From Promethearchaeota archaeon (GTDB lineage: Archaea > Asgardarchaeota > Lokiarchaeia > Sigyniarchaeales > SOKP01): DNA of 37,695 nucleotides. This document shows positions 1 through 37,498 of the stretch, in pieces. Made by a program: the position numbers and the translations under genes. Each line of letters starts with the position of its first letter. Position 1 is the first letter of the stretch. A model generated the notes under the pieces. It was not told the DNA's origin. It saw only the letters and a program-made list of their open reading frames with translations, and ran no database searches. Location: positions 1-37,695 of the forward strand of contig SDNY01000024.1 in the NCBI GenBank assembly GCA_004524535.1. Direction: 5' to 3'.

Positions 1-248
1 GTAGTCTCTTCAATCCATTGACCAAGTTCATCATCAACTCTACAAAAAGTAACAATTTTATCTAAATCTTGAAGATTACTAAATGAGCATTCGATAATCA
101 GATCCCAACCACCATAGACTGGTGTAGAATATGTAACCATCCAATTTTGACCAGGTTCGGTGGATTTTAAATTTTTCAATTTTTCTACTACTTTCCATTC
201 AGTACCAATGATTTTAAGACGGACTAAAATATATCCTCGATAATAAAT
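1..248 (-). CDS. Small Lrp/AsnC ligand-binding (RAM)-domain-like protein; 3' end runs off the window; probable ATT start
   Basis: Not in the ORF track. Manual translation gives (M)YYRGYILVRLKIIGTEWKVVEKLKNLK...TPVYGGWDLIIECSFSNLQDLDKIVTF..., where the V-Y-G-x-W-D-L-I-I pattern fits the AsnC C-terminal fold. AGGTGT (260-255) lies 6 nt before the ATT at 248-246. Confidence 0.7.
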   Translation of the reverse strand, partial: MYYRGYILVRLKIIGTEWKVVEKLKNLKSTEPGQNWMVTYSTPVYGGWDLIIECSFSNLQDLDKIVTFCRVDDELGQWIEET

Positions 249-410
249 TTTAAAACACCTATTTTTATTATATCTTCTTTTATTATATTTGTGTTTTTTT
301 ATTCATATTTAAAAATTCTTAATAATTTTTTGATAGAAAATATTAATTATATAGTGTTTAAAATTTGGAAAATAATTTCATTAAAATATCTATAAAGATG
401 AGTAACATTC

Positions 411-2174
411 ATGGATGATGAAGAGATAAAAAAGATTCTTTGGATTAGCGGTTTAAAAAATGCCATAGAATTTAATGGAAAGCCTAACAAAAAGGCTATT
501 ATGGGAAAGTTAATGGCACAAAGAAAAGATTTAAGATCTCAAGCCAAAACTGTTATTCCTATCTTAGATCAAATTATTAAGGAGATTTCAAAATTAAGCA
601 TAGAAAAACAAAAAGGGAAATTATTACAATTAGACCCGAAAGCCTTAGAGAAAAAGGAAAAAATTGAAGAAAAAAAAGAGCTTCCTCCATTACCTAATGT
701 AGATAAATATGATAAAGTTATAATGCGTTTAGCTCCTTACCCTAGCGGGGCATTACATATTGGTAATGCAAGAATGATCGTGTTAAATAATGAATATGTT
801 AAAAGACATGGGGGCGAACTAATTCTATTCTATGACGATACTATCGGAAGTCCTAAATCATTAAGAGACAGTCCTAAGGCAAAATATGTACTTCCTGAAG
901 CTTATGATTTAATAAAAGAAGGATTAGAATGGCTTGGTGTTAAATATTCAAAAGTATATTATAAAAGCGATAGGATAGAAATCTTCTACGAATATACAAA
1001 GAAACTAATAAAAGATGATGTAGCATATGTTTGCTTCTGTTCTGCCAAAAAATTTAAAGAAAAATATAAAAATAAAAAAGAAAATTGCCCGCATAGAGAA
1101 CAAACGGTAGAAACTAATTTAAAAGAATGGAATAACATGCTTAATGGGAACTATCATGAACAAGATGCTGTTGTTAGATTAAAAACGGGAATGGATCAAA
1201 AAGATCCCGCATTAAGAGACCAAATTATTATGAGAATATCTGAGGCAGAACATCCAAAAGTTGGAAATAAATATACCGTGTGGCCCATGTTAGAGTTTTC
1301 CTGGGCAATCGATGACCATCTTATCGGAGTCACACACATTTTACGTGGAGCAGATTTAGTAAAGGAAGATTTTATAGAAGACTTTATTTGGGAACATTTT
1401 AAATGGAAAAAAGCGGAATTTCTTCATTATGGCAGAATTAATTTCCCAGACATAAAATTAAGCAAAACCTCAGCGAGAAATAATATCCAAAATGGTATAT
1501 ATAAGGGTTGGGATGATCCCAGAACATGGAGTTTACAATCTCTAAAAAAGCGGGGGATCAATCCTGAAGCTCTAAAAGAAGCATTAATAGACCTTGGCAT
1601 GTCGATGACAGGAATAACATTTTCAGTTAATTGGCTTTATTCAAAAAATAAGGATATAATTGATGAGATTTCAGATAGATATTTTTTCGTTGAAGATCCA
1701 ATTTTAATAGAGATCGATGAGGTCCCATTTGAGGAATATATAGCTGAACCCTTCCTATTACCCTCCAGTCCTGAAAAGGGAAAAAGAATAATTAAAGGAA
1801 AATCTAAGGATAAGCAATTAAAGATTTTTATTGCTTCATCAGATGCAAAGAAGTTAAAAGCGGGGAATATTATTCGTCTAAAAGACTGTGTTAATATTCA
1901 AATCCTCTCTATCGATTTAAAAAATAACAACATCAAAGCTTATTACCACAGCTTAGAATTAAATCGAGAGTATTCCATTATTCATTGGGTTCCCGAAGAT
2001 GAGAAAATAAATGTCCAAATTCTTAAACCGGATGGTACAATTTCTAATGGTTATGGTGAAATAAACTTACTTAAAATTCCAATGAATAAAACTATACAAC
2101 TGGAACGGTACGCATTTGTCAATCCAATCAGATTAGAGAATAAAGAATTATTTTGTTATTATACACACAAATAA
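411..2174 (+). CDS. gltX: Glutamate--tRNA ligase (archaeal-type GluRS)
   Basis: RLAPYPSGALHIGN (HIGH motif), KLSKT (KMSKS equivalent), GWDDPR, DDHLIGVTHILRG, archaeal N-terminal extension, C-terminal IQLERYAF. Confidence 0.97.
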   Translation: MDDEEIKKILWISGLKNAIEFNGKPNKKAIMGKLMAQRKDLRSQAKTVIPILDQIIKEISKLSIEKQKGKLLQLDPKALEKKEKIEEKKELPPLPNVDKYDKVIMRLAPYPSGALHIGNARMIVLNNEYVKRHGGELILFYDDTIGSPKSLRDSPKAKYVLPEAYDLIKEGLEWLGVKYSKVYYKSDRIEIFYEYTKKLIKDDVAYVCFCSAKKFKEKYKNKKENCPHREQTVETNLKEWNNMLNGNYHEQDAVVRLKTGMDQKDPALRDQIIMRISEAEHPKVGNKYTVWPMLEFSWAIDDHLIGVTHILRGADLVKEDFIEDFIWEHFKWKKAEFLHYGRINFPDIKLSKTSARNNIQNGIYKGWDDPRTWSLQSLKKRGINPEALKEALIDLGMSMTGITFSVNWLYSKNKDIIDEISDRYFFVEDPILIEIDEVPFEEYIAEPFLLPSSPEKGKRIIKGKSKDKQLKIFIASSDAKKLKAGNIIRLKDCVNIQILSIDLKNNNIKAYYHSLELNREYSIIHWVPEDEKINVQILKPDGTISNGYGEINLLKIPMNKTIQLERYAFVNPIRLENKELFCYYTHK

Positions 2175-2271
2175 CGGTCTCCACTTTATTTTTTAAACAT
2201 TAAATATTGAATTATTTTATAATTTGAAAAGTAAACATATTTGTATTTTAATTTATTCTTTTAATTTAATA

Positions 2272-4292: not shown

Positions 4293-4362
4293 ATAACTCT
4301 TATATGAAAAAGATAGGATTCTTTATAAGTTTCCAACTCGATAATACTTTTTTTAATTCAAA

Positions 4363-4496
4363 TGGGAGAGGGGGGATTCGAACCCCCGACCAATACCGGG
4401 CTTTTTTTTTATTAAAAGACCACTCGGCCCCCAGCCGAGTTTTAAGCAATAAGGTGGAAGCCCTTATAGAATCATACCAAGCTAGACCACCCTCCC
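4363..4496 (-). tRNA. tRNA-Pro(GGG) with two non-canonical introns (4441-4470 at 25/26; 4393-4422 at about 43/44); CCA not encoded
   Basis: Removing both 30-nt segments gives a 74-nt cloverleaf: GGGAGGG TG GTCT AGCTTGGTA TGAT A CTCGG CT GGG GG CCGAG TGGTC GGGGG TTCGAAT CCCCC CTCTCCC A. The anticodon is at 4432-4430. Confidence 0.92.
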
Positions 4497-4650
4497 ATAT
4501 GAAGAGAGTTTGAAAGTTATTTAGGGTATTATTAAAAATCTTCGTCAAAATTTATTTTTAACCATCTTAATTTTTAAAACCAATAATTTTAAAATTTTTT
4601 AAAGGCTTAAACACTAAAATTTAAATTAGTGTGAATAGATTAATTATTGT

Positions 4651-7419: not shown

Positions 7420-7998
7420 ATGGGCATTAGAGTATTGACTATTCAATCGGAAAAATGTACAGGATGCCATATGTGTGAATTGGCATGCTCTAGCGTCAAA
7501 GAAGGAGAGTTTATTCCCAGCCGTTCACGCATAAGGGTCGCTACCAATGGATTGGAAGGATGGTCTAGACCAAATGTCTGCTTACAATGTGAAGATGCAA
7601 TGTGTTTGGCTGCATGCCCGACGGGAGCTATTTTCAAGACCAAAACTCAACAAGGGGACCCACTTATTGCCGTGGACCAAAATAAGTGTACTGATTGCGG
7701 TGCTTGCGTTGATGCCTGCCCATTTGGAGCCCTTGATTTTATCAATGGACTGAAAGCGATCAAATGTGATTTATGTGGAGGTTCCCCAAAATGCGTCGAT
7801 TTTTGCTTCTATGGATGTCTTAATTTTATAGAACTTTCAGATGAGGCATATCAAACCCGAACCAAAAAAATTAAAGCCCTTGCACTCAAAGCAAGCAGGG
7901 AAATCAATAATCTCGACCCTTATCAACGTCGGATTGAATTCTTTCTGGAAGCATCTAAATTTACTACGGTCTCAAGCGATAGTAAAGGAAATAAATAA
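7420..7998 (+). CDS. 4Fe-4S polyferredoxin (DmsB/AorA-like electron-transfer subunit)
   Basis: CTGCHMCELAC, CLQCEDAMCLAACP, CTDCGACVDACP, KCDLC...CVDFC; lies directly after aor. Confidence 0.9.
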   Translation: MGIRVLTIQSEKCTGCHMCELACSSVKEGEFIPSRSRIRVATNGLEGWSRPNVCLQCEDAMCLAACPTGAIFKTKTQQGDPLIAVDQNKCTDCGACVDACPFGALDFINGLKAIKCDLCGGSPKCVDFCFYGCLNFIELSDEAYQTRTKKIKALALKASREINNLDPYQRRIEFFLEASKFTTVSSDSKGNK

Positions 7999-8085
7999 AA
8001 AATCTTATCTTTTTTCAGACTAATAATTTTTATATTTTTTAGAGAGTTTTTTATTTTAACAGAAAAAACATTAAAAAACGAGGAG

Positions 8086-8382
8086 ATAAAATTTCGAACA
8101 CGAAAACCATTTCTTATTTTTTGGCCTCAATACTTTGATGCAAAGCGAAGTAGAAGTGATGGAAGACGCCTTCCTACCAAACTTGCAATTGATAAAGTGA
8201 CTCATAAAGAAATCGCAACAGCAGCAAAAAGATTGGGATATCAAGTAGAAATAGAAGGAAATTATAGGTATCCTAAAACGTGGTGGGAAAATCCTGGAAG
8301 GGTTCTCATAAATACAAAAGGAAAGAAAAAATCTAAGGTAATTTTAGAAATAGCAAGAGAAATCAGAAAAATGCGAGGCTAA
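8086..8382 (+). CDS. srp19: Signal recognition particle 19 kDa protein; non-canonical start (ATA 8086 or TTT 8092)
   Basis: The frame upstream of the tracked GTG (8197) encodes RKPFLIFWPQYFDAKRSRSDGRRLP, the conserved SRP19 N-terminus. The C-terminal part has YPKTWWENPGRV...KSKVILEIA. Confidence 0.9.
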   Translation: MKFRTRKPFLIFWPQYFDAKRSRSDGRRLPTKLAIDKVTHKEIATAAKRLGYQVEIEGNYRYPKTWWENPGRVLINTKGKKKSKVILEIAREIRKMRG

Positions 8383-8394
8383 TGATAACTATTC

Positions 8395-8766
8395 ATGCAT
8401 GAATTTGGTTTTGCGATGCAGATATTCAAAGTTGCTGAAGCTACAGCGATTAAATATAATGCCAAAAAGATTTCTGAAGTGTATTTAGAAATCGGGGAGC
8501 TGACATTAATTGTGCCTGAGTTACTTAAGCAATCATTTAAAATGGCTACACATGGCTCAATTGCTGAAGGAGCAGAGTTAATAATTGAGATTCTTCCCGG
8601 AAAAATTAAATGTCGAGAATGTGGTGAGATTTCAACTGTTAGCTTAAGCCAAGAATCCTATCTGACGGGTCTTCAATTGTTTCAATGTCAACATTGTGAA
8701 AGTAAAAATACAGAAATAATTGAAGGTAAAAAAGCAAATGTGAAAAATATTAAGATTCAAGAATAA
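8395..8766 (+). CDS. hypA: Hydrogenase maturation nickel metallochaperone HypA
   Basis: N-terminal MHE, IGEL, CRECG and CQHC zinc motifs, C-terminal EIIEGK. Confidence 0.93.
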   Translation: MHEFGFAMQIFKVAEATAIKYNAKKISEVYLEIGELTLIVPELLKQSFKMATHGSIAEGAELIIEILPGKIKCRECGEISTVSLSQESYLTGLQLFQCQHCESKNTEIIEGKKANVKNIKIQE

Positions 8767-8771
8767 TTTTT

Positions 8772-9200
8772 TCAGTGTTTTAACACTATTTCAAGTTCTG
8801 TGTTAAAATCTTCATACTGATCTACATATACCAAACTCTTTCTATTATATTTGTCTTTGAATTTTTTTAAGACATCATCTAGTATTGGTTTAATTTTCTT
8901 AGTAATGATTTTTTCAGTTTTCTTTCTATTTTTAATATTGAATATGGCGTATGCAATAAGATCCTCATAATATTCCTCTTCAATGGATTCGATCCGAGTT
9001 ATACTAAAGAATGTGATGTGGTTTGTCGCTTCAATATAGGATAATTCTTCTGAAAATAAACTTTTACTGAAAGAATTTATAGCAGAAAAAAAAGCACCTT
9101 TTTTAAAATCTTGTATTTCACTTATTTCTTCCTGAAAATTTTTTCTGTAAAGAACAAATCCTCGACAAACAATACCTATCTCTTCTATTAACAAAAACAC
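8772..9200 (-). CDS. Hypothetical protein, possible longin/roadblock-like fold
   Basis: Pattern IGIVCRGFVLY...GAFFSAINSFSKSLF.EELSYIE followed by beta strands and a C-terminal helix. GGAGG SD upstream; the true start may be the TTG at 9194. Confidence 0.6.
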   Translation of the reverse strand: MFLLIEEIGIVCRGFVLYRKNFQEEISEIQDFKKGAFFSAINSFSKSLFSEELSYIEATNHITFFSITRIESIEEEYYEDLIAYAIFNIKNRKKTEKIITKKIKPILDDVLKKFKDKYNRKSLVYVDQYEDFNTELEIVLKH

Positions 9201-9253
9201 CCCTCCTCATTATTAGAAAAATATAAATCTTGAATAATAAGAAGTTACTTCGT

Positions 9254-9326
9254 TATATAAATCCATAAGGGAGGATTTTTGACTAGTTCATTGATATATA
9301 AATCCATAAGGAGTGATTTTTGACTA
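9254..9326. repeat. Two-copy 32-bp direct repeat, 41-bp period
   Basis: TATATAAATCCATAAGGGAGGATTTTTGACTA (9254-9285) versus TATATAAATCCATAAGGAGTGATTTTTGACTA (9295-9326). Confidence 0.9.
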
Positions 9327-9387
9327 AAGTATTTTCAATCCCGTATGATATTGATATAGGTAAAATAAAAACTTCTTTAAGAAGGAT

Positions 9388-9765
9388 TTATATTAAAACT
9401 GCGTTTAAAACTCCGTGTTGACCTGGACGGCTAGTAATCTTGGCTTTACCAAGTTCAGTTTCAACTACAGCTCCCCGTGTAAGAATGTGTCTTCGATTCA
9501 AATCTAACGATGCCTCGTTGCTTTCAAATTTTAATATTTTCACTTTCGAAGTTTTATTGGTATTAAGGTCAGTCACATTTACAAAAACAGAAGAAAACAA
9601 CTTTAACTTACTATTTCCTCCCATTACTCGTTGCTCTTTCCTTCGCTCAGTCCCAATTTCAGTGTTGATTGGAGGCCTTTCTAATTCTCTTTTTCTTTTT
9701 TTACGGAAATGTTTATATTTCTTTCCAGTGTATCTTCTTTTACTTCTCCGCTGACTTCTTGCCAT
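9388..9765 (-). CDS. rps8e: 30S ribosomal protein eS8 (S8e)
   Basis: RSKRRYTG, RKRELER, RVMGGN.K.KL, ILTRGAVVETELGKAKITSRPGQHGVLNAVL. Confidence 0.97.
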   Translation of the reverse strand: MARSQRRSKRRYTGKKYKHFRKKRKRELERPPINTEIGTERRKEQRVMGGNSKLKLFSSVFVNVTDLNTNKTSKVKILKFESNEASLDLNRRHILTRGAVVETELGKAKITSRPGQHGVLNAVLI

Positions 9766-9961
9766 AAGAAAATAGACCGTTCTAATTCTAATTCAATATT
9801 ATTGCTAATAAACAATATCTTTAAAGTTTTTTCATATTCAATATTCAATAAATTAATTTTAAACCAAAAAAAATAATTTAAAAAGTTTTTAAATGTAATT
9901 ATAATAATGGTATAAAAATTAGACTTATAATGAAAACAACTAGATTTTTTTAATCTTTAAA

Positions 9962-12817
9962 ATGAAAAAGCAAGAAAAAGTAATTGTTAAAAAACTAATT
10001 ATCGTTGGATTTATTACTGGATTAACCTTCTCAGTTTTTTCCCTTCCAATAATTGAAATGCTTACTGGATCTCCTGTTGCTCCTCTTGGAAATATCCTTT
10101 TTCCGGGTAATGGTGTATGGAACGTCCCAGGAGAAGTTCCAGAACACGAAACATTATATATTGAGGATCTAAATGATGAAGTCACAGTCTATCGTGATGT
10201 CTGGGGCATACCTCACATTTACGGAAACGACGAAGAGGATTTAATGTTTGCGGCGGGGTATGTCCATGCCCAAGATAGATTATTTCAAATGGAAATGGTC
10301 AGAAGGCTTGTCAGAGGAAGATTATCTGAAATTGCTGGTGAGGAGTATATAGAATCCGATAAATACAATCTAGCATTAGGGATGGAATATTGGTCGAAAA
10401 AAACACTTCTAATGTTAGAGGAAAAAGAGGAAAGAGGGGAAATTGATCTTTTAGAACCATTTGAACGATATGTTGACGGAATTAATTATTATATAGATAC
10501 CCACCAAAATGAGCTCCCTATTGAGTTTGCAATATTGGGTTTTAAGCCAACTGAGTGGACAATGACAGATTCATTATGTTTTGCAAAGTATATGGGGTAT
10601 ATGCTTACCTGGGATTACGATGACTTGTATAGATTGATTAATTTTGAGGCATTAGGCAGTGAAAGATATAATGATTTATATAGTCAATATGCTCCTTATC
10701 AAATCCCTATTTGTCCAAATTACGGGTCTTATAACGATAGTGTTATGGCATTAACTCATTTAGAAAGTGAACCACAACCAAGTTCTTCGGCGTTAAATGC
10801 CATATCACGTTTTCTAACCAATGTTGAAAATATTGAATCAGAAAAGCAATTAATAAATATAAAAAAACAGAATATTTTGGGCTCTAATAATTGGGTAGTA
10901 GATGGAGTATTAAGTGATACAGGTAAGCCAATTTTATGTAATGATATGCATTTAGCGTGGGGCTTACCGGGAATATGGTATGAATCTCACATTTCCGCGC
11001 AAGATCCGGATTTAAATGTCTATGGATTCACACTTCCGGGAGTGCCGCTAGTTATTGTTGGACATAACGAACATATAGCTTGGGGATTTACTAATACAAA
11101 TTACGACGTTTTAGACTGGTACTATTACAACGAGATAGATTCTAATCATTATATTCATAATGGTAAGGTAAAAGAATATAAAACAAGAGATTATAAGATT
11201 CGTGTAAAAGGAAAAGATCCAGTGGAATTTAAAGTGAAAGAAACAGTGCATGGTCCTGTTTTAAACGATTTCTTAGATGATGCGGTTCCGGACTCCCTTG
11301 ATTACGAAAATATAGTTATTGCACCCCAATGGACTGCTAACGACATAACATACGAAGCTTTAGCATTTTATGAATTCTTTTTTGCGAAAAATAGGGCAGA
11401 ATTTAATGAATCTTCAAGATGGTTTGTCAATCCTGCTCAAAATATGATCTATGGGGATATACACGGTAATATCGGAATTAGACCAACTGGATTAGTGCCT
11501 ATAAGAGATGGAAACGAAAATGGAACGTTCCCATATGATGGATCGAGTGGCGAAGGCGAATGGATTGGATACATTCCTTTTGAAGAATTACCCCATACTG
11601 AAAATCCCGACCAGCATTATCTGGCTTCTGCAAACCAAATAGTTGCGGGTCCTAACTATAAAAAGTATTTCCTTCAACACCCCTATGCTGCAGGCTATCG
11701 AGCAAGACGAATTAACGAATTACTTAATAATTCTGAAGATGGGACTGTAAGCGTAGAAACGATGAAAGAAATCCAATTAGATATAAGATCCACTCCCGCA
11801 GAATACTTTACACCCTATTTAATCAATGTAATTGAAAAAGGTGGGTTTTCTGAGAAAGCTTCAGTGATAAATCAAATTTATTCACATCTTAAATCTTGGC
11901 AATTTGATATGGATAAAGATAAAGCAGCTCCCACGATATACCGCAAATGGCGCGATTTATATATGGAATATACATTTGAAGACGAATTTGATGCGTTAGA
12001 TGCTTATCAGTATGTTCAATTAAATGTTTTAGAGAAATTAACCAGGGAAGATCCAAATTCAACGTGGTTTGACGATATTTATACACCCATAGTTGAAAAG
12101 AGAGATGATATTATTCTAAGAGCATTTTTGGATACGGTTGATTGGCTTGAAGACTTCTACGATTCAGATGATGTCGATGATTGGGAGTGGGGTGATCTAC
12201 ATAAAGGGTATTTCGAGCATCTTTTAGAAATAGAAACTTTTAGTAAAGGTCCTTATGAATTGGATGGAGAGGGCTACACAGTAAATCCTTCTTGGGTAGA
12301 TATAAGCGATGGGGAAGGAAGAGCAGGTGGAGGAGCTTCAGAGAGAATGATTATCGACTTTAGCGATCTTCAAAATTGTTTAAGTGTAATCCCATCCGGA
12401 CAACGTGGATATTCAAACTCAAAACATTATGATGATCAATTAGAATTATTTTTAGACGGAGAATATCATCCTCAATATTTTTATGATGATATTGAGGATT
12501 TTCCTGAAAGTAAAATTGAATCCCAACTCCACTTTATTCCGGCTGAAAAAGTTATCGTGTGGATAGCTTTCACAACAATTTTCTTAATTATTGGGATTAT
12601 TAGCCTCATAGAAATTCGCTGGATAAGAAAGTATGATATAATTCCAAAAATTGAAGAAAAGAGAAATTTATTAGTTCAATGGATCAAAAAAAACGAGCTG
12701 ATTTCAAAAATTAAAGAAAAGAGAAATGTATTAATTCAATGGATCAAAAAGAACGGGAGAATTTCAAAAATTAAAGAGTGGAATCATTCTTTGGTTCAAT
12801 GGATCAAAAAAAGGTGA
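9962..12817 (+). CDS. Penicillin acylase family (Ntn-hydrolase, S45) amidase, anchored at both termini
   Basis: VYRDVWGIPHIY, GYVHAQDRLFQM, autocatalytic G-SNNW (Ser codon 10883), NDMHL, PGIWYE, ETVHGP, SANQ, PSGQRG...HYDDQ; hydrophobic N- and C-terminal helices. Confidence 0.93.
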   Translation: MKKQEKVIVKKLIIVGFITGLTFSVFSLPIIEMLTGSPVAPLGNILFPGNGVWNVPGEVPEHETLYIEDLNDEVTVYRDVWGIPHIYGNDEEDLMFAAGYVHAQDRLFQMEMVRRLVRGRLSEIAGEEYIESDKYNLALGMEYWSKKTLLMLEEKEERGEIDLLEPFERYVDGINYYIDTHQNELPIEFAILGFKPTEWTMTDSLCFAKYMGYMLTWDYDDLYRLINFEALGSERYNDLYSQYAPYQIPICPNYGSYNDSVMALTHLESEPQPSSSALNAISRFLTNVENIESEKQLINIKKQNILGSNNWVVDGVLSDTGKPILCNDMHLAWGLPGIWYESHISAQDPDLNVYGFTLPGVPLVIVGHNEHIAWGFTNTNYDVLDWYYYNEIDSNHYIHNGKVKEYKTRDYKIRVKGKDPVEFKVKETVHGPVLNDFLDDAVPDSLDYENIVIAPQWTANDITYEALAFYEFFFAKNRAEFNESSRWFVNPAQNMIYGDIHGNIGIRPTGLVPIRDGNENGTFPYDGSSGEGEWIGYIPFEELPHTENPDQHYLASANQIVAGPNYKKYFLQHPYAAGYRARRINELLNNSEDGTVSVETMKEIQLDIRSTPAEYFTPYLINVIEKGGFSEKASVINQIYSHLKSWQFDMDKDKAAPTIYRKWRDLYMEYTFEDEFDALDAYQYVQLNVLEKLTREDPNSTWFDDIYTPIVEKRDDIILRAFLDTVDWLEDFYDSDDVDDWEWGDLHKGYFEHLLEIETFSKGPYELDGEGYTVNPSWVDISDGEGRAGGGASERMIIDFSDLQNCLSVIPSGQRGYSNSKHYDDQLELFLDGEYHPQYFYDDIEDFPESKIESQLHFIPAEKVIVWIAFTTIFLIIGIISLIEIRWIRKYDIIPKIEEKRNLLVQWIKKNELISKIKEKRNVLIQWIKKNGRISKIKEWNHSLVQWIKKR
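12641..12817 (+). repeat. Coding tandem repeat, 60-nt (20-aa) period, about 3 copies
   Basis: IPKIEEKRNLLVQWIKKNEL / ISKIKEKRNVLIQWIKKNGR / ISKIKEWNHSLVQWIKKR; TTCAATGGATCAAAAA recurs every 60 nt. Confidence 0.92.
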
Positions 12818-12823
12818 TCATAA

Positions 12824-13303
12824 ATAGCTCTCAAGAAAATAAGAAGAAAAATTAAGAATGGTTTTAAAAACAAAGAGATTAATCCAGAACTTAAACTAGC
12901 TCGAATAAATTTTTTAATCGGGACTCTTTTTGCGGTTATTATTACGTTTTTTCTTTTATTTGTAGAAATATGGCATTTAATTATAATTCCTGGTTTGGTT
13001 GCCGGAATATTTAATAAAAAGATGAAACGTGGAATATATAGTGGAGCTTTAGGAGTTACTTTAGTCTGGTTAATTTACATGACTTTAGCTATTCTTACTC
13101 GAAATGCTTATGCTAATTTAGATCAATTTGCGGGCTTAATTTTTGGTGAATTAGGGTACGGATGGATTCTTTTTATAATGATCTTGTTATTTGGAACATT
13201 ATTTGGAGCCCTGGGTGGAGCAATTGGAAGCGGCCTTGTGATCTTTATTGACCTTAAACAAATGGATCGAGTGGATAACGCTCAGACTCGAGAGGAGAGA
13301 TGA
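12824..13303 (+). CDS. Small Gly-rich membrane protein (DUF5518-like); probable ATA start
   Basis: The frame opens right after TAA 12821-12823 and encodes a basic N-terminus plus an extra TM (FLIGTLFAVIITFFLLFVEIWHLIIIPG) before the tracked TTG at 12995. AGGTGA lies 6 nt upstream; GALGGAIGSG motif. Confidence 0.75.
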   Translation: MALKKIRRKIKNGFKNKEINPELKLARINFLIGTLFAVIITFFLLFVEIWHLIIIPGLVAGIFNKKMKRGIYSGALGVTLVWLIYMTLAILTRNAYANLDQFAGLIFGELGYGWILFIMILLFGTLFGALGGAIGSGLVIFIDLKQMDRVDNAQTREER

Positions 13304-13372
13304 ATCAAAAATTTTACATTTAAAATATTAAAAGAAAAATATATTTAGTTCTATTCTTTTAAATAAAATGAT

Positions 13373-14017
13373 ATGATGGAAAATAATTTAAAAAAAAATT
13401 CTAGCAATTTAGATGAAGATAACTTAAAAAAAGTTCTATCAGGCACTACAACCGTAGGGTTAATTGTAAAAGAAGGGGTTGTAATTGGGACAGAGTCTCA
13501 AGCGACAGCTGGTTATACGGTTGCAACGAAGCAGGCGCAAAAATTATTTGAAATCAATAAGTATACTGCCGCTACTATATCTGGTGGTGTTGCCGATTGC
13601 CAATATGTAATTAATCAAATACAAGCATTATCCCGATTGAAACAAGTAGAGGAGGGGCAAAGTCCTGAACCTAAATATGTAGCAAATACAACAAGAAACA
13701 TACTCTTTTCAGGACGGTCTTATTTTCTCTCGCTGATGATTGTAGGCGGGTATTCTCTTGACGAGAAGAAGGGTGTGCTTTACGGAATAGATTTATTAGG
13801 CACTCTTTTTGAAGAAGATAAATATATCTCTTTTGGCTCCGGTTCTCCTTTTTCTTTGGGCGTATTAGAAGCAGATTGGAAGAAAGAAATGTCTCTATCT
13901 GAAGGGATAGATTTAATAAAGACCGCCATTTCGGCGTCAAGGGAACGCGATGCCGCCTCAGGATTTAAGATACAAATATGTACCATAGACAAAGATGGAT
14001 TTAAACAAATTCAATAA
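13373..14017 (+). CDS. psmB: 20S proteasome beta subunit
   Basis: Propeptide followed by G-TTTVG (catalytic Thr), KLFEIN, SGGVADCQ, GSGSPF, RDAASG. Confidence 0.96.
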   Translation: MMENNLKKNSSNLDEDNLKKVLSGTTTVGLIVKEGVVIGTESQATAGYTVATKQAQKLFEINKYTAATISGGVADCQYVINQIQALSRLKQVEEGQSPEPKYVANTTRNILFSGRSYFLSLMIVGGYSLDEKKGVLYGIDLLGTLFEEDKYISFGSGSPFSLGVLEADWKKEMSLSEGIDLIKTAISASRERDAASGFKIQICTIDKDGFKQIQ

Positions 14018-14036
14018 ATAATTTGGATGAAAATTT

Positions 14037-14513: not shown

Positions 14514-14535
14514 ATTATTCCCTAATTAACGTATA

Positions 14536-15216: not shown

Positions 15217-15285
15217 TAATAACAGTATCGTTTTTCTTTATTCTAAGTAATATCAAACAAGGAAAATTAAAAAATGTAACAATTA

Positions 15286-16768: not shown

Positions 16769-16774
16769 ACGTAA

Positions 16775-16837
16775 TTTTGGTTAACTTGGTTAACGAAAAC
16801 ATAAAATAAAACAAAATATTTTTTTTTTTTTTTCTTT
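16775..16837 (+). terminator. Putative histone terminator: hairpin followed by long T-tract
   Basis: TTTTG-GTTAAC-TTG-GTTAAC-GAAAA then an uninterrupted T run at about 16819-16833. Confidence 0.5.
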
Positions 16838-16975
16838 AGAAAGAAATAGTTATTTATTACTTATTCAATAGATAAAAATAGATTTTTTTTAATAAGAATA
16901 ATTCAATTGTATACTTAGATTAATTAATAGATTAAATAATATATATTACTAAACAAATAGAAAAGTTGATTTACT

Positions 16976-17470
16976 ATCAATAGTGCTAATTTCGAAAAAA
17001 AGCATACTCAAAAATTATGTAATGCTATATCTATTCTTTTAACTGTTTCATATTCTCTATTTATGGCAGCCGCTGGACACGCACCAATTAAACATGAAGG
17101 ATATAATGAAGATAAATTCACTATCGAAATTGATATTTCTGATAGAGAATTATTAAAGAGAAACATTAATAATTTTTATTTAAAAGAATCAATGGAATTA
17201 GTTAGTGAACTTAATTTAAATAATAGAGATCATAAAAGAATCTTTAAAAAATTTAAGAAAATATTTGAAAACTCAGAATTAATGGAAAAGTTACACATAA
17301 TTAACTCCAAAATTGCGTTTAATGAAAAGTCTGAATTTAAAGAGATAATGTTAGAAATCGTAACTAAAATTGACATTGATGAATTAATTCCATTTTTAGA
17401 ATACATATTTAGAAAAGATGATTTGATTTATTTCATTCAAGATTTATTTAATGCCAAATACATGAAATAA
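16976..17470 (+). CDS. Hypothetical protein; ATC start at 16976 possible, otherwise ATG at 17063
   Basis: The frame is open from the in-frame TGA within AGTTGA; the ATC is 6 nt later and adds a hydrophobic stretch (AISILLTVSYSLF). Confidence 0.55.
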   Translation: MNSANFEKKHTQKLCNAISILLTVSYSLFMAAAGHAPIKHEGYNEDKFTIEIDISDRELLKRNINNFYLKESMELVSELNLNNRDHKRIFKKFKKIFENSELMEKLHIINSKIAFNEKSEFKEIMLEIVTKIDIDELIPFLEYIFRKDDLIYFIQDLFNAKYMK

Positions 17471-17603: not shown

Positions 17604-17743
17604 AAATAGATTAAATAAAGATTTAAATGTTAGAATATTCACTCTCATTACATTAAAGTAAAATTTCGTCTTAAAAAGAAAATCCGAACGATAAATCTAC
17701 TAACAAAGCATATGCTTGGATTAATGTTTTTGGTGTTTAATTT

Positions 17744-18826
17744 ATGATTTCACCTATTAGTTGGATAAATGGATTTAGCGCTTTAGCGCTAGTTTCCGCT
17801 TCTTTTATCTTTGCATTTTATTTCGTGTATATTTATTGGAAGACAAAAAATAATATTTTACTCAATGGTGCTATTTTAGGTATTGCTTGTGCATTTGGTT
17901 GGATGGGAATTACATTGTCATTTTTATCTGTTGTAATATATGGATATAATCTGCCTGGGCTCAAATTATCTGTAAATATACTTTCCTATTCTACAATGCC
18001 CATTGGGTCTATGGCAATCTTAAATATAGCATGGGAGATGTTATTGCCTCCTAAACATAAAAAAAAAGTATTGATGGCAATAGGGATATTTAGTATTTTC
18101 TATTATATAGTATTATTTATGACATTTAATAGCGCAGTAGTATGTCCTGATGTCCCACCTGGAGAAATCTACGATGATTGGCTTTCATCTGAGGAACTCC
18201 CTTATTATTTAATATATGTTTTGATTTCAGGTATTACAATAATCTTTGCAATCGGTATATTAAGATTTTTTAAAGTTGTAATAGGTGATTTGCGAAAGAG
18301 AGCAATTTGGATTATTATTGCTACTCCAATAATGGGTAGTTGCATCTTGCTTGACACGGTGATTATTACAGATGCCATGTTTCAAGATCTTTTATTTATT
18401 GTTCGATTCCTAATGATTGTATCACTTTTTTGTACATACAAAGGTTTTAAACCACCTGAAGAAAAAATCATCGATTCTATTAAAGAAGATCGCGTGGATG
18501 ATGTACGAAGATCAGCAATCGAGAGAATGTTTGCCTCTAGACCTGAGAAGATTACCGAAGAGGAAATAAAGTTTTATAAAGAAAAAACAATTTGTTTAGT
18601 ATGCAGGAAAGAGGAAACTGGTTTTATCAATCTATTTATATGCCCAGAATGTAAGGCACTTTACTGCGAAAAATGCGCTCGAGCGTTAATTAAATTAGAG
18701 AACGCATGTTGGGCGTGCAACGAGGCAATCGACAAGTCAAAACCAGTAAAACTGCCAGAGAAAGAGGAAGAGAAAGTTATAGTAGAAGAAAAGAAGACCA
18801 AAAAAAAACCCACAAAGATAAAATAA
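17744..18826 (+). CDS. Seven-transmembrane protein with C-terminal C8 RING-like zinc finger
   Basis: Seven hydrophobic segments in aa 1-235, then CLVC-x12-CPEC-x4-CEKC-x10-CWAC (18593-18718) and a Lys/Glu-rich tail. Confidence 0.85.
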   Translation: MISPISWINGFSALALVSASFIFAFYFVYIYWKTKNNILLNGAILGIACAFGWMGITLSFLSVVIYGYNLPGLKLSVNILSYSTMPIGSMAILNIAWEMLLPPKHKKKVLMAIGIFSIFYYIVLFMTFNSAVVCPDVPPGEIYDDWLSSEELPYYLIYVLISGITIIFAIGILRFFKVVIGDLRKRAIWIIIATPIMGSCILLDTVIITDAMFQDLLFIVRFLMIVSLFCTYKGFKPPEEKIIDSIKEDRVDDVRRSAIERMFASRPEKITEEEIKFYKEKTICLVCRKEETGFINLFICPECKALYCEKCARALIKLENACWACNEAIDKSKPVKLPEKEEEKVIVEEKKTKKKPTKIK

Positions 18827-21525: not shown

Positions 21526-21563
21526 GAGTTTATGAGGAGATAAAAAATAAAAGGTGATTAACA

Positions 21564-22319
21564 ATAAAAATTCATGACAAATTTCAAAAGGGTGTAGAAA
21601 ACGTTTTTTTTAAGGGAGAATCTACAAAATGGAGCCGAAAACTTACCTTCATTTTTGGAAATTTATTTTTGATGGTTTTTTTATATGGAATTATCATAAT
21701 GCTTATTTTATACACTTGGACGGGTAGTTTATATCCTGAAGGTACAGGTTATAGATTAGATTTTCTTGGTGAAAATTTTATTCCATTTGTTCCAGAAATG
21801 GCCATTTTCTATATTTTTTTATTTTTTCCAATGTTAATTCTAACTTTAATCTATTTCGGTTTTCTTGATGAAGAGAAAGGTTACGGTTTAGGATGGTCTA
21901 TCGTGATAATGAATGCTATCGCAACTATTATCTATATCATTTTTCCCGTATCAACTTACTGGTGGAGACAAGAGCTTTTGGCTAATAAAATTGAAGGCAA
22001 TTTTTTCGCAGATTTAATGTACTTCTATTACACGCACGAGACAAGTTTCAATTGCTTACCAAGTATGCATGCTGGAATGTCGACTATTTGTTTCTTCACT
22101 TGGTATCAGTACTATAAAATAAATCCAACTTTTAAGAGAAAAATTATAGCAATTATTGCTTTAATCATAGCAGTTGGAGTTGTGCTATCAACATTATTTG
22201 TGAAACAGCACTACATAATTGATGAGATTGCTGGAGTTGCATTAGCTTTTGCTGTTGGAATGTTTGTTTTTAGACGATCTAGCGGTTGGAATCCCTCTGA
22301 AATAACAAATCAAACCTAA
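21564..22319 (+). CDS. PAP2-superfamily (Aur1/PAP2_3-like) membrane phosphatase or phosphotransferase; probable ATA start
   Basis: IIFPV, NCLPSMH, STLFVKQHYIIDEIAG. AGGTGA (21552-21557) lies 6 nt before the in-frame ATA at 21564. Confidence 0.85.
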   Translation: MKIHDKFQKGVENVFFKGESTKWSRKLTFIFGNLFLMVFLYGIIIMLILYTWTGSLYPEGTGYRLDFLGENFIPFVPEMAIFYIFLFFPMLILTLIYFGFLDEEKGYGLGWSIVIMNAIATIIYIIFPVSTYWWRQELLANKIEGNFFADLMYFYYTHETSFNCLPSMHAGMSTICFFTWYQYYKINPTFKRKIIAIIALIIAVGVVLSTLFVKQHYIIDEIAGVALAFAVGMFVFRRSSGWNPSEITNQT

Positions 22320-22377
22320 TTTCTTGCTAATCCTAAAATAACATTTTAAGTACATAATAATAAAATATTGATTAAAA

Positions 22378-26762: not shown

Positions 26763-28913
26763 ATGCATACTGGTTTTCCCGAATATTTTAATGGTACTTT
26801 TTTAAAGCAGAATAAGATTTTTTACCGACATTATCAAAATAATATTTTTCATGCATGTAAGAACAAGAATTCGTTAGTAATTTTGCCTACAGGGTTAGGA
26901 AAAACGATAATTGGAATCCTGTTAGTGGCAAATACACTTAGAAGGTATTCTAAGGGAAAGGTGATAATACTTGCTCCGACTAGGCCTTTGGTTTCACAGC
27001 ATAAGAGCACTTGTAAGAAATTTTTAGCAATTAATGAAGAAGAAATAGTATCTTTAACTGGAAAAGTAAGCCCTGAAAAGCGTATCCTTCTATTTAAAGA
27101 ATCTCGAATCATCGTTTCAACACCTCAGATTATGAAGAATGACATAGAACGAGGAAGATATAATTTAAAAGAAATAGCATTGATAATCTTTGACGAGGCT
27201 CATCGTTGTAAAGGAAATTATGCATATAATTTTATTTCTGGTGAATATATTAATAGTTGCACTGATCCATTAATATTAGGATTAACCGCATCCCCTGGAA
27301 AGGATTATGAACATATTCAACTGATATGCGACAATTTATACATAGAAAATGTAGTCTTTAAGTATTATGAAGATAATGATGTGAAAGATTACATTCATGA
27401 GATCGATACTTTTTTAGAAAGAATAGAATTGCCCATCAAATTAATTGAATTAAGTAAGGTTTGGGATCACCTATTTAAGAAATGTCTAAGATTTTTTATA
27501 GAGCGCAACTTGATAAATCCATATAAGAAATATTATTCAAAATTAGATTTTTTGAGAATAAGCCATGATTTAACCTATTCGCTAAAATACGAGAATTATC
27601 GTGATTCTAAAATATATGATGATAATCTCTTAAAATATCTATATTATCATGATCCTAAAATAATAGATATTGTAAAAGAAAAAAAATTAAACATCCAATC
27701 AATATTTTCTTATTGCTCAAGTTGTATATCTATGCTTCACGCTAAAGATTTATTAGAGACTCAGGATATTTCGCTTTTTAAGTCTTTTTTGGAGAAACTG
27801 AAATATAAAGCAGATCAAGATATATTATCTGCTAAAAGAATTATAAATTCTGAGAATTATAAATTCATAAATTCCATTATTGAAAAAGCGGGGCAATCAA
27901 ATTTATCTCATCCTAAAATAAATAAATTGTTCTCAATTATTAGAGAGGAATTAGAGGAATTTCAAAATAAAAAAATCATTATCTTTACACAATATAGAGA
28001 AATGGCAGAGCTTCTAAAAAATAAATTGAGAGAGGAATATAAAAATCATCTTGTCATTGAGAAATTTATTGGTCAAACGACGAAAATAGACGATTGTGGC
28101 TTCCCTCAACTCAAACAAATCGAAATTTTACAAGAGTTTAGAGAAGATAAAATAAATATATTAATCGCAACGAGCGTTGCAGAAGAAGGATTAGATATTC
28201 CGAATGTTGACGCAATAATTTTTTACGAACCAGTCCCCTCAGAAATTAGATTAATTCAGAGACGTGGTAGAACCGGTAGATTTGCGGCGGGAAGGTGTTA
28301 TATCCTTTTAACAGAAAATACAGTTGACGTTCCGTTTCATATAGTCGCTAAGAGAAAAGAAAGTGAAATGAACTCGATCTTAATGGAGCCTAAACAATTA
28401 GAATTAAATAAAAACTTAAAGCGAGAAAAAATCAAGTTTTCTCCTAATGTTAGTAATTATTCAGAGTTAGATATTATCAATAATTTTAAAGAACGGCGAG
28501 AAAAGGAAAAGGAAATCTTGGCAGATCGTTCAATTGAAGAAATTATTATAGAGATTGATAACTTTGCAAAAAGCTCAGAATATAAGAAACTTAAAAATTA
28601 TGGATTATCCTTCATTGCAGATTTGATTAGAATAGATGAGTCAAAATTAAGAAAAAACGTTTTAAAGTTAAAAGGGAAAAAAATCATAACTTCAAGAGAA
28701 AGAAAACGTTATTTAAATAGGAATATAAAGACTTTAATTAATATTGTTAAATTAAATGAAAATGGGAAAATGAAATTTTCAGAGTTCCAAGATCTCGCTC
28801 GAGAGGAGGATATACAAGATAAAAAACTTCATACTCACTTAAATCAAGCCTGTCATTTAGGATATTTGAAGAAACTCCCTAAATATATTCAATTTATTAA
28901 AGACTACGATTGA
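26763..28913 (+). CDS. hef: Hef/FANCM/Mph1-like SF2 helicase (no ERCC4 nuclease domain seen)
   Basis: R.YQ, LPTGLGKT, LAPTRPLV.QH, FDEAHR..GNYAY, GLTASPG, ATSVAEEGLDIP, YEPVPSEIR.IQRRGRTGR. Confidence 0.9.
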   Translation: MHTGFPEYFNGTFLKQNKIFYRHYQNNIFHACKNKNSLVILPTGLGKTIIGILLVANTLRRYSKGKVIILAPTRPLVSQHKSTCKKFLAINEEEIVSLTGKVSPEKRILLFKESRIIVSTPQIMKNDIERGRYNLKEIALIIFDEAHRCKGNYAYNFISGEYINSCTDPLILGLTASPGKDYEHIQLICDNLYIENVVFKYYEDNDVKDYIHEIDTFLERIELPIKLIELSKVWDHLFKKCLRFFIERNLINPYKKYYSKLDFLRISHDLTYSLKYENYRDSKIYDDNLLKYLYYHDPKIIDIVKEKKLNIQSIFSYCSSCISMLHAKDLLETQDISLFKSFLEKLKYKADQDILSAKRIINSENYKFINSIIEKAGQSNLSHPKINKLFSIIREELEEFQNKKIIIFTQYREMAELLKNKLREEYKNHLVIEKFIGQTTKIDDCGFPQLKQIEILQEFREDKINILIATSVAEEGLDIPNVDAIIFYEPVPSEIRLIQRRGRTGRFAAGRCYILLTENTVDVPFHIVAKRKESEMNSILMEPKQLELNKNLKREKIKFSPNVSNYSELDIINNFKERREKEKEILADRSIEEIIIEIDNFAKSSEYKKLKNYGLSFIADLIRIDESKLRKNVLKLKGKKIITSRERKRYLNRNIKTLINIVKLNENGKMKFSEFQDLAREEDIQDKKLHTHLNQACHLGYLKKLPKYIQFIKDYD

Positions 28914-28917
28914 TCCA

Positions 28918-34815: not shown

Positions 34816-36216
34816 TTAAATTAGGGCTTCCTCAGTACTTAAAAAATCTTCATCTGTAGGTTGTTCAATTATATCCAAAAGATTATACTCACTAATCATT
34901 TGAAGAATTCCCATAACTACCATGCCATGACTGTAGAGCTCATTTGCGTCATAGAGATTCCTCCAACAGAAGGGACATTCAGTTAATAAGAAGTCTGCTT
35001 TAACAGCGTTAGCCTCATCACATCTTAAGCTCGCAGTCCTAAGAGAAAAATCCGGATACCCTGCTCTTACTCCACCACCGGCACCACAACACATGCTATT
35101 GAGCTTTATTCTATACATCTCTTTAAATACGAGTCCAACATCCTCTTCGAGCTTTCTTAGAATGACTCTTGGTTTTTCAAACCATCTATCGATTTCTTGT
35201 CCGATTTTTCTCATGTCAAACATGAGGTTTTTAGATTCCTCAATCATCCTTTGCTCATAATCCACAGCAAAATGTCTGCCTGTGTGGCAAGGATCATGGT
35301 AAGTAACTATTTTCCCTTTTAGCTCTTTGTTTGGTTTGAATTTTATTTTTTCTTTTGTAATTAATTCTTTGATAAGTTCGAATGCATGTTTTGTTTTAAA
35401 TGGAAGTTTCTCATCTTCTGCCATCCATTTTGGATAATCAATCGTAAGGGTTCTATAACAACCAGCACATGAGAAATAGAGTATTTCTACGTCTTTAAAC
35501 GCTTCAAGGTTTTTCCTCATTAGTTCTTGTGCGGTATCCACGGCACCTATTCTGAAGAAAGGGCTTCCACAGCAGACTTCGTCTTCAACTAGGGTAAAAT
35601 TAATACCTAATTGTTCAAAAAGCTTTGCTGTTGCAATAGCAACTTCTACTTGACGATAACTAGCAGTACAGCCAACATAATAGGCAACATTTGCATCTTT
35701 ATTGTTAATGAACTTTTCTAAACCTGCATCTTTTGCCCATTTAAACCGATCTCCTGCTTCACCACCATAAGGATTGTTCCTTTCTTTAACAATGTTATCT
35801 ACTAATTGGTGCTTATCAATCATTGGGACTCCGGCTTCTTTACACGCAGCACGCAGAGATTCAATAATATCCACAGTGCGAATTTTATTTTCACATTGTG
35901 CTTGACACTGTCCGCACGTAATACAAGGCATTATAACATCTCTTAAATCTTCAGAAAATTCTAAATCGTCAGTCAAAATAGAACGAGCAATCCAAATTTT
36001 TCCGGCATTCCAAAATGCCTCCCAACCATATTCAATACCTGCCGGGCATGAATCAACCATACCTTCGTAAAGAACAGATTTTTGTTTGCCTTTCCATTCG
36101 CCGATTCCTTTTCTGCTAGGCTCACCTGAGTAAGCGAAGCGACATGCTTTGCAGTGAATACATTTAAAGATATCTTTTTTTAGTTCTTCTAACCTTTGTT
36201 TACCAGTTTTAGCCAT
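34816..36216 (-). CDS. HdrD/GlcF-like Fe-S oxidoreductase with two CCG domains
   Basis: CIHCKAC, CITCGQCQAQC, YYVGC, EVCCG, CAGC, YHDPCH, CCGAGGG, CPFC. The ATG at 36216 sits 5 nt after AGGTGA; the tracked GTG at 36225 is part of the SD. Confidence 0.9.
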   Translation of the reverse strand: MAKTGKQRLEELKKDIFKCIHCKACRFAYSGEPSRKGIGEWKGKQKSVLYEGMVDSCPAGIEYGWEAFWNAGKIWIARSILTDDLEFSEDLRDVIMPCITCGQCQAQCENKIRTVDIIESLRAACKEAGVPMIDKHQLVDNIVKERNNPYGGEAGDRFKWAKDAGLEKFINNKDANVAYYVGCTASYRQVEVAIATAKLFEQLGINFTLVEDEVCCGSPFFRIGAVDTAQELMRKNLEAFKDVEILYFSCAGCYRTLTIDYPKWMAEDEKLPFKTKHAFELIKELITKEKIKFKPNKELKGKIVTYHDPCHTGRHFAVDYEQRMIEESKNLMFDMRKIGQEIDRWFEKPRVILRKLEEDVGLVFKEMYRIKLNSMCCGAGGGVRAGYPDFSLRTASLRCDEANAVKADFLLTECPFCWRNLYDANELYSHGMVVMGILQMISEYNLLDIIEQPTDEDFLSTEEALI

Positions 36217-36233
36217 TTTTTTCACCTCTTTTT

Positions 36234-36452
36234 TTATGGAAGAGCGAGTCTTCCTGGATGCATTATCATATTAGGATCTACTAACTTTTTAAACGCTCTT
36301 AAATATTTCCAATACATTCCTGCTTGATAATACGCTTGAATGTGGATAAATGGATCAGGCCTATAATTTAACCATCCTCTCTTCAATGCATATTCCGTTG
36401 TAACAGCGTTTAAGTCTTGTACTTTTTCAAAATCTTTATCTTCATTTTTCAT
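36234..36452 (-). pseudogene. Isolated C-terminal fragment of a FAD-linked oxidase (GlcD/D-lactate dehydrogenase type)
   Basis: Ends in LRAFKKLVDPNMIMHPGR, the terminal K..(L/F)DP..I(L/M)NPG motif of this family. It is only 72 aa and the upstream DNA is AT-rich and non-coding. Confidence 0.6.
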
Positions 36453-36605
36453 TTTTTTTTCGATTATTTCAATATTTTTATAATTAATAAATTAAAAAAA
36501 TAAATAATTTATGGATAAAAAAAATTATGATTTAAAATTATAAAAGTAAAAAAACAGATTTAAAAGGCTGTCTATTTAAGAAAATTTACTTTTTTTTTAA
36601 GAGTC

Positions 36606-37271
36606 CTAACACTTTATTTCAGAACTAAATTCTAGAAGAATCTCTCTCTCTTCTTTAGGGACTAGTTTTAAGGCTTTCTCAACAATTAATCCTACTTCTT
36701 TTTTAAAGCCAGCGTTATAACTTGTGCGAATCACATCTATAAAATCATTAATACCGATTTCAATAATGCCACTCCTTAGATATTCAGCATCTTGAGCATA
36801 TCTGAATGTTTCTTGATTTAAAACTTTAAATGTATTAGAAATTATTTTACAGAATGTGGAAAAATTGTTTTGAATTGTTTTGAAATCTCCGCCAGAATAA
36901 ATCGGAGAAATAACATCTTGTATTTTTTCGAATCTAAACGGTTTGTTTAAAGCATCATCTACTAATATTTGAAATCCGTCAATGGTTATCTTTTGCTTCC
37001 CAAAAATGATATCGTGTTCGGGGCGTGAATACCAATAGTAAAACTGATTTTCACCAAGTTTCTGGAATGCAATTCCATCCATAGCTAAAAGAACATGCGT
37101 AAGAAGAAATTGATTATCTTTGTTTTCCTTATAATCCGCACGACATATTAGACTGCATAAAATTGGATGGTCGTTTTTCACTATGATTTTATAAAGATCG
37201 GTTGCGTCAATGGGAACAAAATACCGAACCATTTTTTCACTTATATCATCAATTTCTTGATCGGTTAGAAT
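36606..37271 (-). CDS. Hypothetical protein; ATT start at 37271 possible, otherwise ATG at 37232
   Basis: 208-aa tracked ORF. AGGTGA (37284-37279) lies 7 nt before an in-frame ATT that adds (M)LTDQEIDDISEK. Confidence 0.65.
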   Translation of the reverse strand: MLTDQEIDDISEKMVRYFVPIDATDLYKIIVKNDHPILCSLICRADYKENKDNQFLLTHVLLAMDGIAFQKLGENQFYYWYSRPEHDIIFGKQKITIDGFQILVDDALNKPFRFEKIQDVISPIYSGGDFKTIQNNFSTFCKIISNTFKVLNQETFRYAQDAEYLRSGIIEIGINDFIDVIRTSYNAGFKKEVGLIVEKALKLVPKEEREILLEFSSEIKC

Positions 37272-37498
37272 GTGAATATCACCTAAATCTTTATATCTTT
37301 CATTGAAGTTATATTTTTGTGGTTTATATTTTTATTGTTTTTTAATCTTACCATAGATTGAATGTTCTTTTTAGTTTAACAATAATAATAGATTAGTAAA
37401 TTTCTGATTTTAGGATAAATGAAAAAAAAAAGAAAAAATATAAAATAGGATTAGATCAATCCGAATTGCCTTAAGGGGTTTTTCCAATCGCATCAAAT

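Follow-up and report, generated by a model that had tools for sequence, protein, structure and literature searches.

AUU and AUA start codons placed by a Shine-Dalgarno (SD) sequence have been described in several bacterial genes, and we compare them here with candidate starts of the same kind on a 37,695-nt stretch of DNA (the window) from a Promethearchaeota archaeon (contig SDNY01000024.1 of assembly GCA_004524535.1) and in the archaeal family to which it belongs. In the following, the window is contig C73 of genome bin G000 (3.66 Mb, 198 contigs, 4.4% contamination, G+C content of about 30%), C-numbers denote G000 contigs, G001-G029 are the genomes of relatives compared with G000, and NTG stands for ATG, GTG or TTG.

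The accessible text of two sources names AUU as the start codon of infC and pcnB in Escherichia coli, and AUA (infC, ccpN and citZ) or AUU (cvfC1) in Staphylococcus aureus (PMC13009471, PMC4705826), the four S. aureus starts being preceded by extended SD sequences (PMC13009471). The Asgard family resembles these bacteria in that a near-cognate codon would serve as the start if preceded at the right distance by a strong or extended SD, and in that the gene of a fidelity factor, like bacterial infC, itself carries a near-cognate codon. In contrast to the two to four genes per genome given for the bacteria in these sources, ATT or ATA starts are indicated for at least 53-85 of the approximately 3000 genes of G000, or about 29% of its GGTGA-led genes. 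The Asgard SD sequences ahead of ATT and ATA are no longer than those ahead of ATG, and the organism has eukaryote-type aIF1 and aIF2, whereas bacteria have IF3. Reporters in S. aureus gave roughly 10% of the AUG output. Mitochondria also use AUA and AUU as starts in an AT-rich genome, without SD sequences, and many lineages read AUA as methionine through a modified tRNA. The Asgard family shares the two codons and the AT-richness with mitochondria, but almost every resolved case requires an SD, and AUA, as far as seen, is a normal isoleucine codon in the family.

Within the Asgard archaea, the tubulin AtubA of Kariarchaeaceae has been assigned one "rare ATT start codon", ahead of which lies a plausible ribosome-binding site (Sci Adv 2026, PMC13394414). 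As in the present family, an Asgard gene had been deposited too short, and an upstream ATT restores the first β-strand, with the ribosome-binding site at a plausible distance; the case differs in that it concerns one gene of another Asgard lineage, is called rare and, in the available text, comes with no genome-wide analysis. Reviews, in their accessible portions, name only AUG, GUG and UUG as archaeal starts (PMC7531240, PMC12993045, PMC4705826) and describe SD sequences as not prevalent in Lokiarchaea (PMC7531240, PMC12993045). Our literature search, outside which lay subscription journals and supplements, found no account of AUU/AUA initiation on a genome-wide scale in archaea.

Our analysis indicates that AUU and AUA are very likely working start codons in this Promethearchaeota (Lokiarchaeia-type) family when an SD places them 5-7 nt past ...GGUGA, with AUC and CUG being rare. 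An earlier note on this DNA had proposed SD-positioned non-canonical initiation as a property of the lineage, with gene callers truncating its proteins, and this is now backed by four lines of evidence: the contrast between in-frame and out-of-frame positions, the reach of Pfam domains and solved structures 5' of the first NTG, the presence of ATG or TTG at the matching codon in relatives, and the lack of the signal in an equally AT-rich genome of a sister family.

Candidate start codons in the window

The earlier note had described six near-cognate arrangements and two ATG controls, and every motif is present at its position:

260-255 and 248-246, minus strand: SD AGGTGT (260-255), N6, candidate ATT start (248-246), as read from the sequence; gene from 248 to 3, continuing past the window edge
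8080..8382, plus strand: SRP19 gene without an NTG start; GAGGAG 8080-8085, ATA 8086, TTT 8092 at the Met1-equivalent position, first NTG being GTG 8197
12812..13303, plus strand: SD AGGTGA (12812-12817, sharing bases with the stop of the preceding gene), N6, candidate ATA start 12824
16964..17470, plus strand: AGTTGA (16964-16969), N6, ATC 16976, rejected as a start; ATG 17063 is the most likely beginning
21552..22319, plus strand: SD AGGTGA (21552-21557), N6, candidate ATA start 21564 of a PAP2-family membrane protein
36606..37284, minus strand: SD AGGTGA (37284-37279), N7, candidate ATT start (37271-37269) of a protein of no known family
36216..36232, minus strand: control, GAGGTGA followed by ATG 36216
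17728..17746, plus strand: control, GGTGT-N7-ATG 17744

At all six sites the open frame extends well 5' of the first in-frame NTG, which lies 23 (248), 37 (ATA 8086), 57 (12824), 29 (16976), 35 (21564) and 13 (37271, an ATG) codons downstream. The remaining window genes mostly have ATG starts without an SD, and ATT or ATA occupies the SD-defined position in 4 of the roughly nine window genes bearing an SD-like 5-mer. Judged site by site, a near-cognate start is indicated at four of the six positions. The proposed starts at 248(-), 12824, 21564 and 37271(-) are supported by the aligned codons of relatives or by paralogues, that of SRP19 stands in part (there is no usable NTG, but the codon is ambiguous), and ATC 16976 was not upheld.

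The gene at 248(-) encodes a small conserved protein (IYYRGYILVRLK...), with a TTG 23 codons 3' of the ATT as its first NTG. The ATT of G000 recurs at the aligned position in G008, G005, G007 and G013, where G003, G004, G001, G009 and G016 have ATG. For the PAP2-family protein (Pfam PAP2_3 over residues 79-231), G008 shares the ATA that G000 has at 21564; at the aligned codon, ATT is found in G001, G003 and G006, and G004 and G017 have ATG. The product of the gene at 12824 is a membrane protein with a weak DUF5518 match (Pfam E=4e-4, residues 29-136). G008 carries ATA at the same SD+6 position, and the ATG-started N-termini of distant orthologues align to residues ~5-30, far 5' of the first TTG (residue 58). 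No orthologue of the protein at 37271(-) was found among the 29 relatives, and the same SD and ATT are kept in its two G000 paralogues (C45 and C19). This protein family (window 36606-37331, minus strand) thus has three copies in G000, the others being at C45:3096-3752 and C19:2693-3289, with no match in the 29 relatives, and may be cargo of a mobile element. For the frame at 16964..17470, the homologues have open frames of 98-113 aa and align to residues 57-162 only, so that ATG 17063 suffices as the start; its AGTTGA is not an SD.

Genome-wide enrichment of ATT and ATA behind SD motifs

G000 contains 3955 stop-to-stop frames of at least 100 codons, or 3097 after removal of overlapped ones. 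The SD signal ahead of first-ATG starts is modest, with the frequency of G rising from ~0.08 to 0.20-0.25 at positions -13 to -8 (1492 starts). A start-like context was defined as GGTGA followed by a frame open for at least 100 codons, with an in-frame stop within 20 codons upstream. Among 228 such contexts, a nearby in-frame ATG (88), TTG (30) or GTG (12) was present in most, and 98 had none. In these 98 contexts, ATT (32) or ATA (21) occurred in frame at a spacing of 5-7 nt in 53 cases, as compared to 4 of 196 (two each) out of frame at the same spacings (Fisher p=3e-26). The placement of ATT and ATA behind SD motifs is far beyond chance. No in-frame enrichment behind GGTGA was found in G000 for AAA, AAT, TTT or TTA, and none was clear for CTG (3 in frame, 1 out of frame). 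Within the proposed set of non-canonical codons, ATA and ATT are enriched, whereas ATC appears only in single genes (uS12 and aIF1).

With four SD 5-mers taken together, 586 contexts contained ATG in 232 cases, TTG in 64, GTG in 23, ATT in 53 (14 out of frame) and ATA in 32 (4 out of frame). ATT and ATA are confined to spacings of 5-7 nt, while ATG is spread over 4-10 nt, and the length of the SD is equal (6.1 nt ahead of ATT/ATA and 6.2 nt ahead of ATG). A codon-usage log-likelihood score for coding sequence 5' of the first NTG was dropped, as it reached 21% sensitivity at 5% false positives in 20-codon windows. The 16S rRNA of G000 is cut by a contig end at model position 1343/1478, before the anti-SD.

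Ribosomes arriving from an upstream cistron might reinitiate at weak codons through translational coupling. Archaeal SD motifs are often linked to distal cistrons, which fits this explanation, as does ATA 12824, located 6 nt past the stop of the upstream gene with its SD overlapping that stop. However, a co-directional ORF of at least 100 codons ends within -30..+20 nt for 10 of 84 ATT/ATA starts as compared to 51 of 125 SD-led ATG starts, and 56 of the 84 have no such ORF within 100 nt. Coupling is thus an unlikely source of the pattern.

Domains and homologues upstream of the first NTG

The strict search produced 104 candidates with an SD and ATT or ATA, 75 of which have their first NTG at least 12 codons downstream; 53 of these were run against Pfam, leaving out 7 candidates shorter than 150 aa and 15 that seemed to be of low complexity or duplicated. 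Thirty-three matched a Pfam domain. The domain begins 5' of the first NTG in 21 of them, in agreement with the truncation by automated annotation that had been proposed, and 18 would lose at least 10 residues. The affected domains include the P-loops of Ras/Arf/Rag-like GTPases, the FtsZ/tubulin GTPase domain and the TFIIB zinc ribbon, as well as HisA, FtsJ, Usp and ECH. The FtsZ alignment begins before the GGAGNN motif, which itself lies ahead of the first NTG. For uS12, many solved chains have their first residue aligned with an ATC located 6-7 nt behind AGGTG, and the first NTG follows 47 residues later.

The earlier note had asked which codon orthologues carry at the Met1-equivalent position. 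Where G000 candidates could be aligned cleanly with relatives at the N-terminus (17 alignments), this codon is ATG in 8 (two of them from a single G000 site, C113:21811, probably internal to HdrA), TTG in 2 and ATT or ATA in 7, so that a canonical start was found in 10 of 17.

A further explanation is that the genes begin at the first downstream NTG, and that SD-ATT/ATA combinations and open upstream frames arise by chance. ATT and ATA are frequent triplets at 30% GC, ATC 16976 in the window and the CbiM candidate elsewhere are indeed such cases, and 12 of the 33 Pfam cases need no upstream start. Yet chance does not account for the ratio of 53/98 in frame to 4/196 out of frame, nor for its absence from a sister-family genome of the same GC (G025, below). 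Downstream starts would cut into the domain in 21 of the 33 Pfam cases and would also shorten uS12 and FtsZ, and relatives carry ATG or TTG at the aligned codon. This explanation is largely refuted, and we consider it very unlikely.

The strict counts of ATT and ATA starts are lower bounds, because real genes outside the strict rule use other SD and codon patterns. We inspected by eye 53 frames that lack a strict SD+ATT/ATA and stay open for at least 40 codons ahead of the first NTG; many look spurious or antisense, and the real genes mostly have a relaxed SD or ATC/CTG:

ATC behind AGGTG: uS12
CTG behind GAGGTGA-N5: metallo-beta-lactamase-fold protein
GGAGG-N6-ATT or GGAGG-N6-ATA: GTPase, parvulin
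GGGGG-type SDs: further real genes

Frames on C52, C115, C134 and other contigs, each cut short by a stop on the 5' side, resemble interior segments of acetyl-CoA synthetase-, TldD- and small-GTPase-like genes; frameshifts, split genes or assembly faults might account for them.

Distribution of ATT and ATA starts among relatives

Pieces of 400-800 kb from five relatives' genomes were scanned for in-frame ATT and ATA per GGTGA context:

G005, same genus, 400 kb: 9/33 in frame, 0 out of frame
G001, same genus, 400 kb: 5/27 in frame, 1 out of frame
G015, another genus of the same family, 398 kb: 6/13 in frame, 0 out of frame
G025, sister family, 31% GC, 800 kb: 2/54 in frame, 3 out of frame
G026, third family, 54% GC, 400 kb: 2/134 in frame, 3 out of frame

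Several of the candidates in G005 have orthologues among those of G000, and the codon is then identical. The signal was not seen in the 800 kb scanned of the equally AT-rich sister-family genome G025, and therefore AT-richness alone does not yield the pattern, nor is it created by the method. Initiation at ATT and ATA appears to be a trait common to G000 and three other genomes of its family, consistent with the lineage property that had been claimed.

The recurrence among relatives also bears on assembly or sequencing errors and on decaying pseudogenes that have lost their ATG. G000 is a metagenome bin of 198 contigs with 4.4% contamination, some of its ORFs resemble internal gene fragments, and the 5' end of SRP19 differs sharply from that of a 95%-identical relative. 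Nevertheless, the same ATT/ATA starts are present in the separately assembled G005, G008, G001, G007 and G013, and contigs produced by another assembler (probable source run, depth ~49) match window positions 7900-16790 and 19457-22400 with zero differences. Three further sediment runs contain short pieces from relatives, which do not bear on the start codons. Errors or decay would not be confined to in-frame positions 5-7 nt past an SD, and the affected genes include uS12, FtsZ, TFB and aIF1. Since the starts recur in separate assemblies and the contigs of the other assembler agree, we regard errors as excluded for practical purposes and the whole explanation as extremely improbable.

Initiator tRNA and other tRNA genes

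A fidelity substitution in the initiator tRNA had been suggested as a possible basis of relaxed initiation, but the tRNA proved canonical. G000 contains one initiator-like tRNA with a CAU anticodon, A1:U72 and three G-C pairs, and its anticodon arm is identical to those of relatives with and without the ATT/ATA trait. The gene was located by similarity to that of G025. With ARAGORN and the Rfam tRNA model, no more than ~20 tRNAs were detected in G000. No initiator-like gene with a UAU, AAU or GAU anticodon was found in this bin, whose tRNA set is incomplete.

AUU and AUA might otherwise have been made cognate by A-to-I editing of AUA, by reassignment of AUA or by a second initiator tRNA with another anticodon. 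Nothing positive speaks for these routes beyond the small number of tRNA genes detectable in the bin. ATT is no less frequent than ATA among these starts and can be explained neither by editing nor by AUA reassignment, and the sole initiator-like tRNA has CAU. A cognate route is thus highly improbable.

The initiator tRNA gene (C174 ~41450-41590, minus strand) has two insertions, one after the anticodon arm and one inside the T-arm region, while the genes of relatives have an insertion beside the anticodon loop instead. In the window, a tRNA gene at 4363-4496 (minus strand) carries an insertion of ~60 nt in the anticodon region; it is missed by ARAGORN, scores 32.9 bits with the Rfam model and is overlain by an 82-aa "ORF" at 4300-4548.

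The start codon of the aIF1 gene

Fidelity substitutions in aIF1 had also been suggested. No obvious one was found by eye. The aIF1 gene itself appears to start with ATT or ATC. In G000 (C174:10640-10852 and 5' flank), no NTG precedes the N-terminal zinc knuckle. The absence of an NTG ahead of the CxxC knuckle, together with a conserved ATT or ATC, was observed in 14 of 16 family genomes. This isoleucine codon lies six codons ahead of the knuckle and 9 nt behind a conserved AAGGTTGTGA, and is ATC in G000, G005 and G002 and ATT in the others. In a wider scan, ATT or ATC without an NTG before the knuckle was found in all 21 close relatives, a set that overlaps the 16 family genomes. The aIF1 start is TTG, ATA or ATG in the sister family and ATG in the third family. 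Three other Promethearchaeota have GTG or TTG, and the codon is ATG in 54, GTG in 1 and TTG in 1 of 56 other archaea. Records L257, L259 and L272 are titled Hodarchaeota or Odinarchaeota, and their aIF1 is 89-95% identical to that of G000; their bin labels look inconsistent.

According to the accessible text of one review, aIF1 of Sulfolobus solfataricus discriminates against AUU, and the AUU start of infC leads to autoregulation of IF3, as does the weak start context of eIF1 (PMC4705826). A conserved weak start behind an imperfect SD on the family's aIF1 gene thus resembles bacterial infC and the poor-context AUG of eukaryotic eIF1. In those two systems, negative feedback arises through such a weak start on the gene of a fidelity factor, and for aIF1 a similar role is proposed. 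The family differs from the other archaea sampled, which use ATG for aIF1 in 54 of 56 loci, and no report of a non-AUG aIF1 start was found in the same literature search, with its limits as to subscription journals and supplements.

The SRP19 gene

In SRP19, counting from ATA 8086, position 2 of the Pfam profile falls on residue 12 and the first GTG on residue 38, and the domain opens 26 residues ahead of this GTG. In 25 of the 26 relatives' loci an ATG aligns to TTT 8092, and the gene opens with ATG-AGA-TCA-AGA-AAA-CC; the remaining locus (G029, another family) has ATT. G000 has TTT and a different 5' flank with GAGGAG. The start codon is ambiguous because the sole near-cognate codon, ATA 8086, abuts the SD, with no ATT or ATA at the usual spacing. 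ATA 8086 appears to be the likeliest start, TTT 8092 holding the Met1-equivalent position.

The 5' end and flank of the gene (window 7999-8100) are wholly unlike those of locus L004 of G008, whose protein is 95% identical; there are synonymous changes in Arg codons, and TTT stands in place of ATG. This suggests a recent replacement of the 5' end of the gene in G000. The arrangement SD-N6-TTT, in frame with a gene lacking a canonical start, occurs at three places (window 8080-8094; C78 ~27510-27526, plus strand; C175 ~170-190, minus strand, in strand-oriented coordinates). These may be a coincidence or an initiation feature outside the ATT/ATA rule.

Weight of the evidence and proposed mechanism

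Several results weigh against regular initiation at AUU and AUA or limit its reach. About 12 of the 33 Pfam cases are uninformative, and CbiM (C187) is a clear false positive that begins at a downstream ATG. ATC is not enriched as a class behind GGTGA in G000 (2 in frame, 3 out of frame). SRP19 and an ABC ATPase (C78) have neither a canonical start nor a properly spaced ATT or ATA, and therefore something beyond the simple rule is at work. The relatives are kin from one species collection and not independent replicates. As to aIF1, a family-specific substitution in conserved motifs is not evident in the alignment as read by eye, and the aIF1 start codon is tied to global stringency only by a correlation over three families.

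We infer relaxed start selection as the mechanism behind the use of AUU and AUA. The ordinary initiator tRNA (CAU) would read both codons through a third-position mismatch and insert methionine. The genes concerned would include those of FtsZ, TFB, HisA and small GTPases (ATT/ATA), with uS12 and aIF1 starting at ATC. Between close relatives, ATG, ATT and ATA replace one another at the same codon. Synthesis of aIF1 from an AUU or AUC start could keep stringency low and self-adjusting, and low stringency would in turn allow AT-biased mutation of ATG to ATA or ATT to be tolerated. We tentatively suggest, as a possibility that falls somewhat short of being probable, that such an aIF1 feedback loop has lowered start-codon stringency across the family, making AUU and AUA regular starts for several percent of its genes, essential ones included.

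Significance for the family

The view that SD sequences are rare in Lokiarchaea is qualified by these results, as 85 of the 404 SD-led genes of G000 (about a fifth) would be invisible when only annotated starts are analysed. If true, the aIF1 feedback would explain the apparent SD rarity in such analyses. Gene callers limited to ATG, GTG and TTG would shorten or overlook the N-terminus in an estimated 2-6% of the proteins in these genomes, the lower bound being given by the strict counts and the upper one by rough extrapolation from the window (5 of ~33 genes). Among the affected classes are transcription factors, ribosomal proteins, cytoskeletal proteins and small GTPases, which feature in arguments about the origin of eukaryotes, and the practical cost is illustrated by the Asgard tubulin described in the available text as deposited too short (PMC13394414). 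The family represents a natural system in which third-position near-cognate starts are common alongside eukaryote-type initiation factors, with a sister family of equal GC as a built-in control, and the start of its own aIF1 gene points toward a testable feedback.

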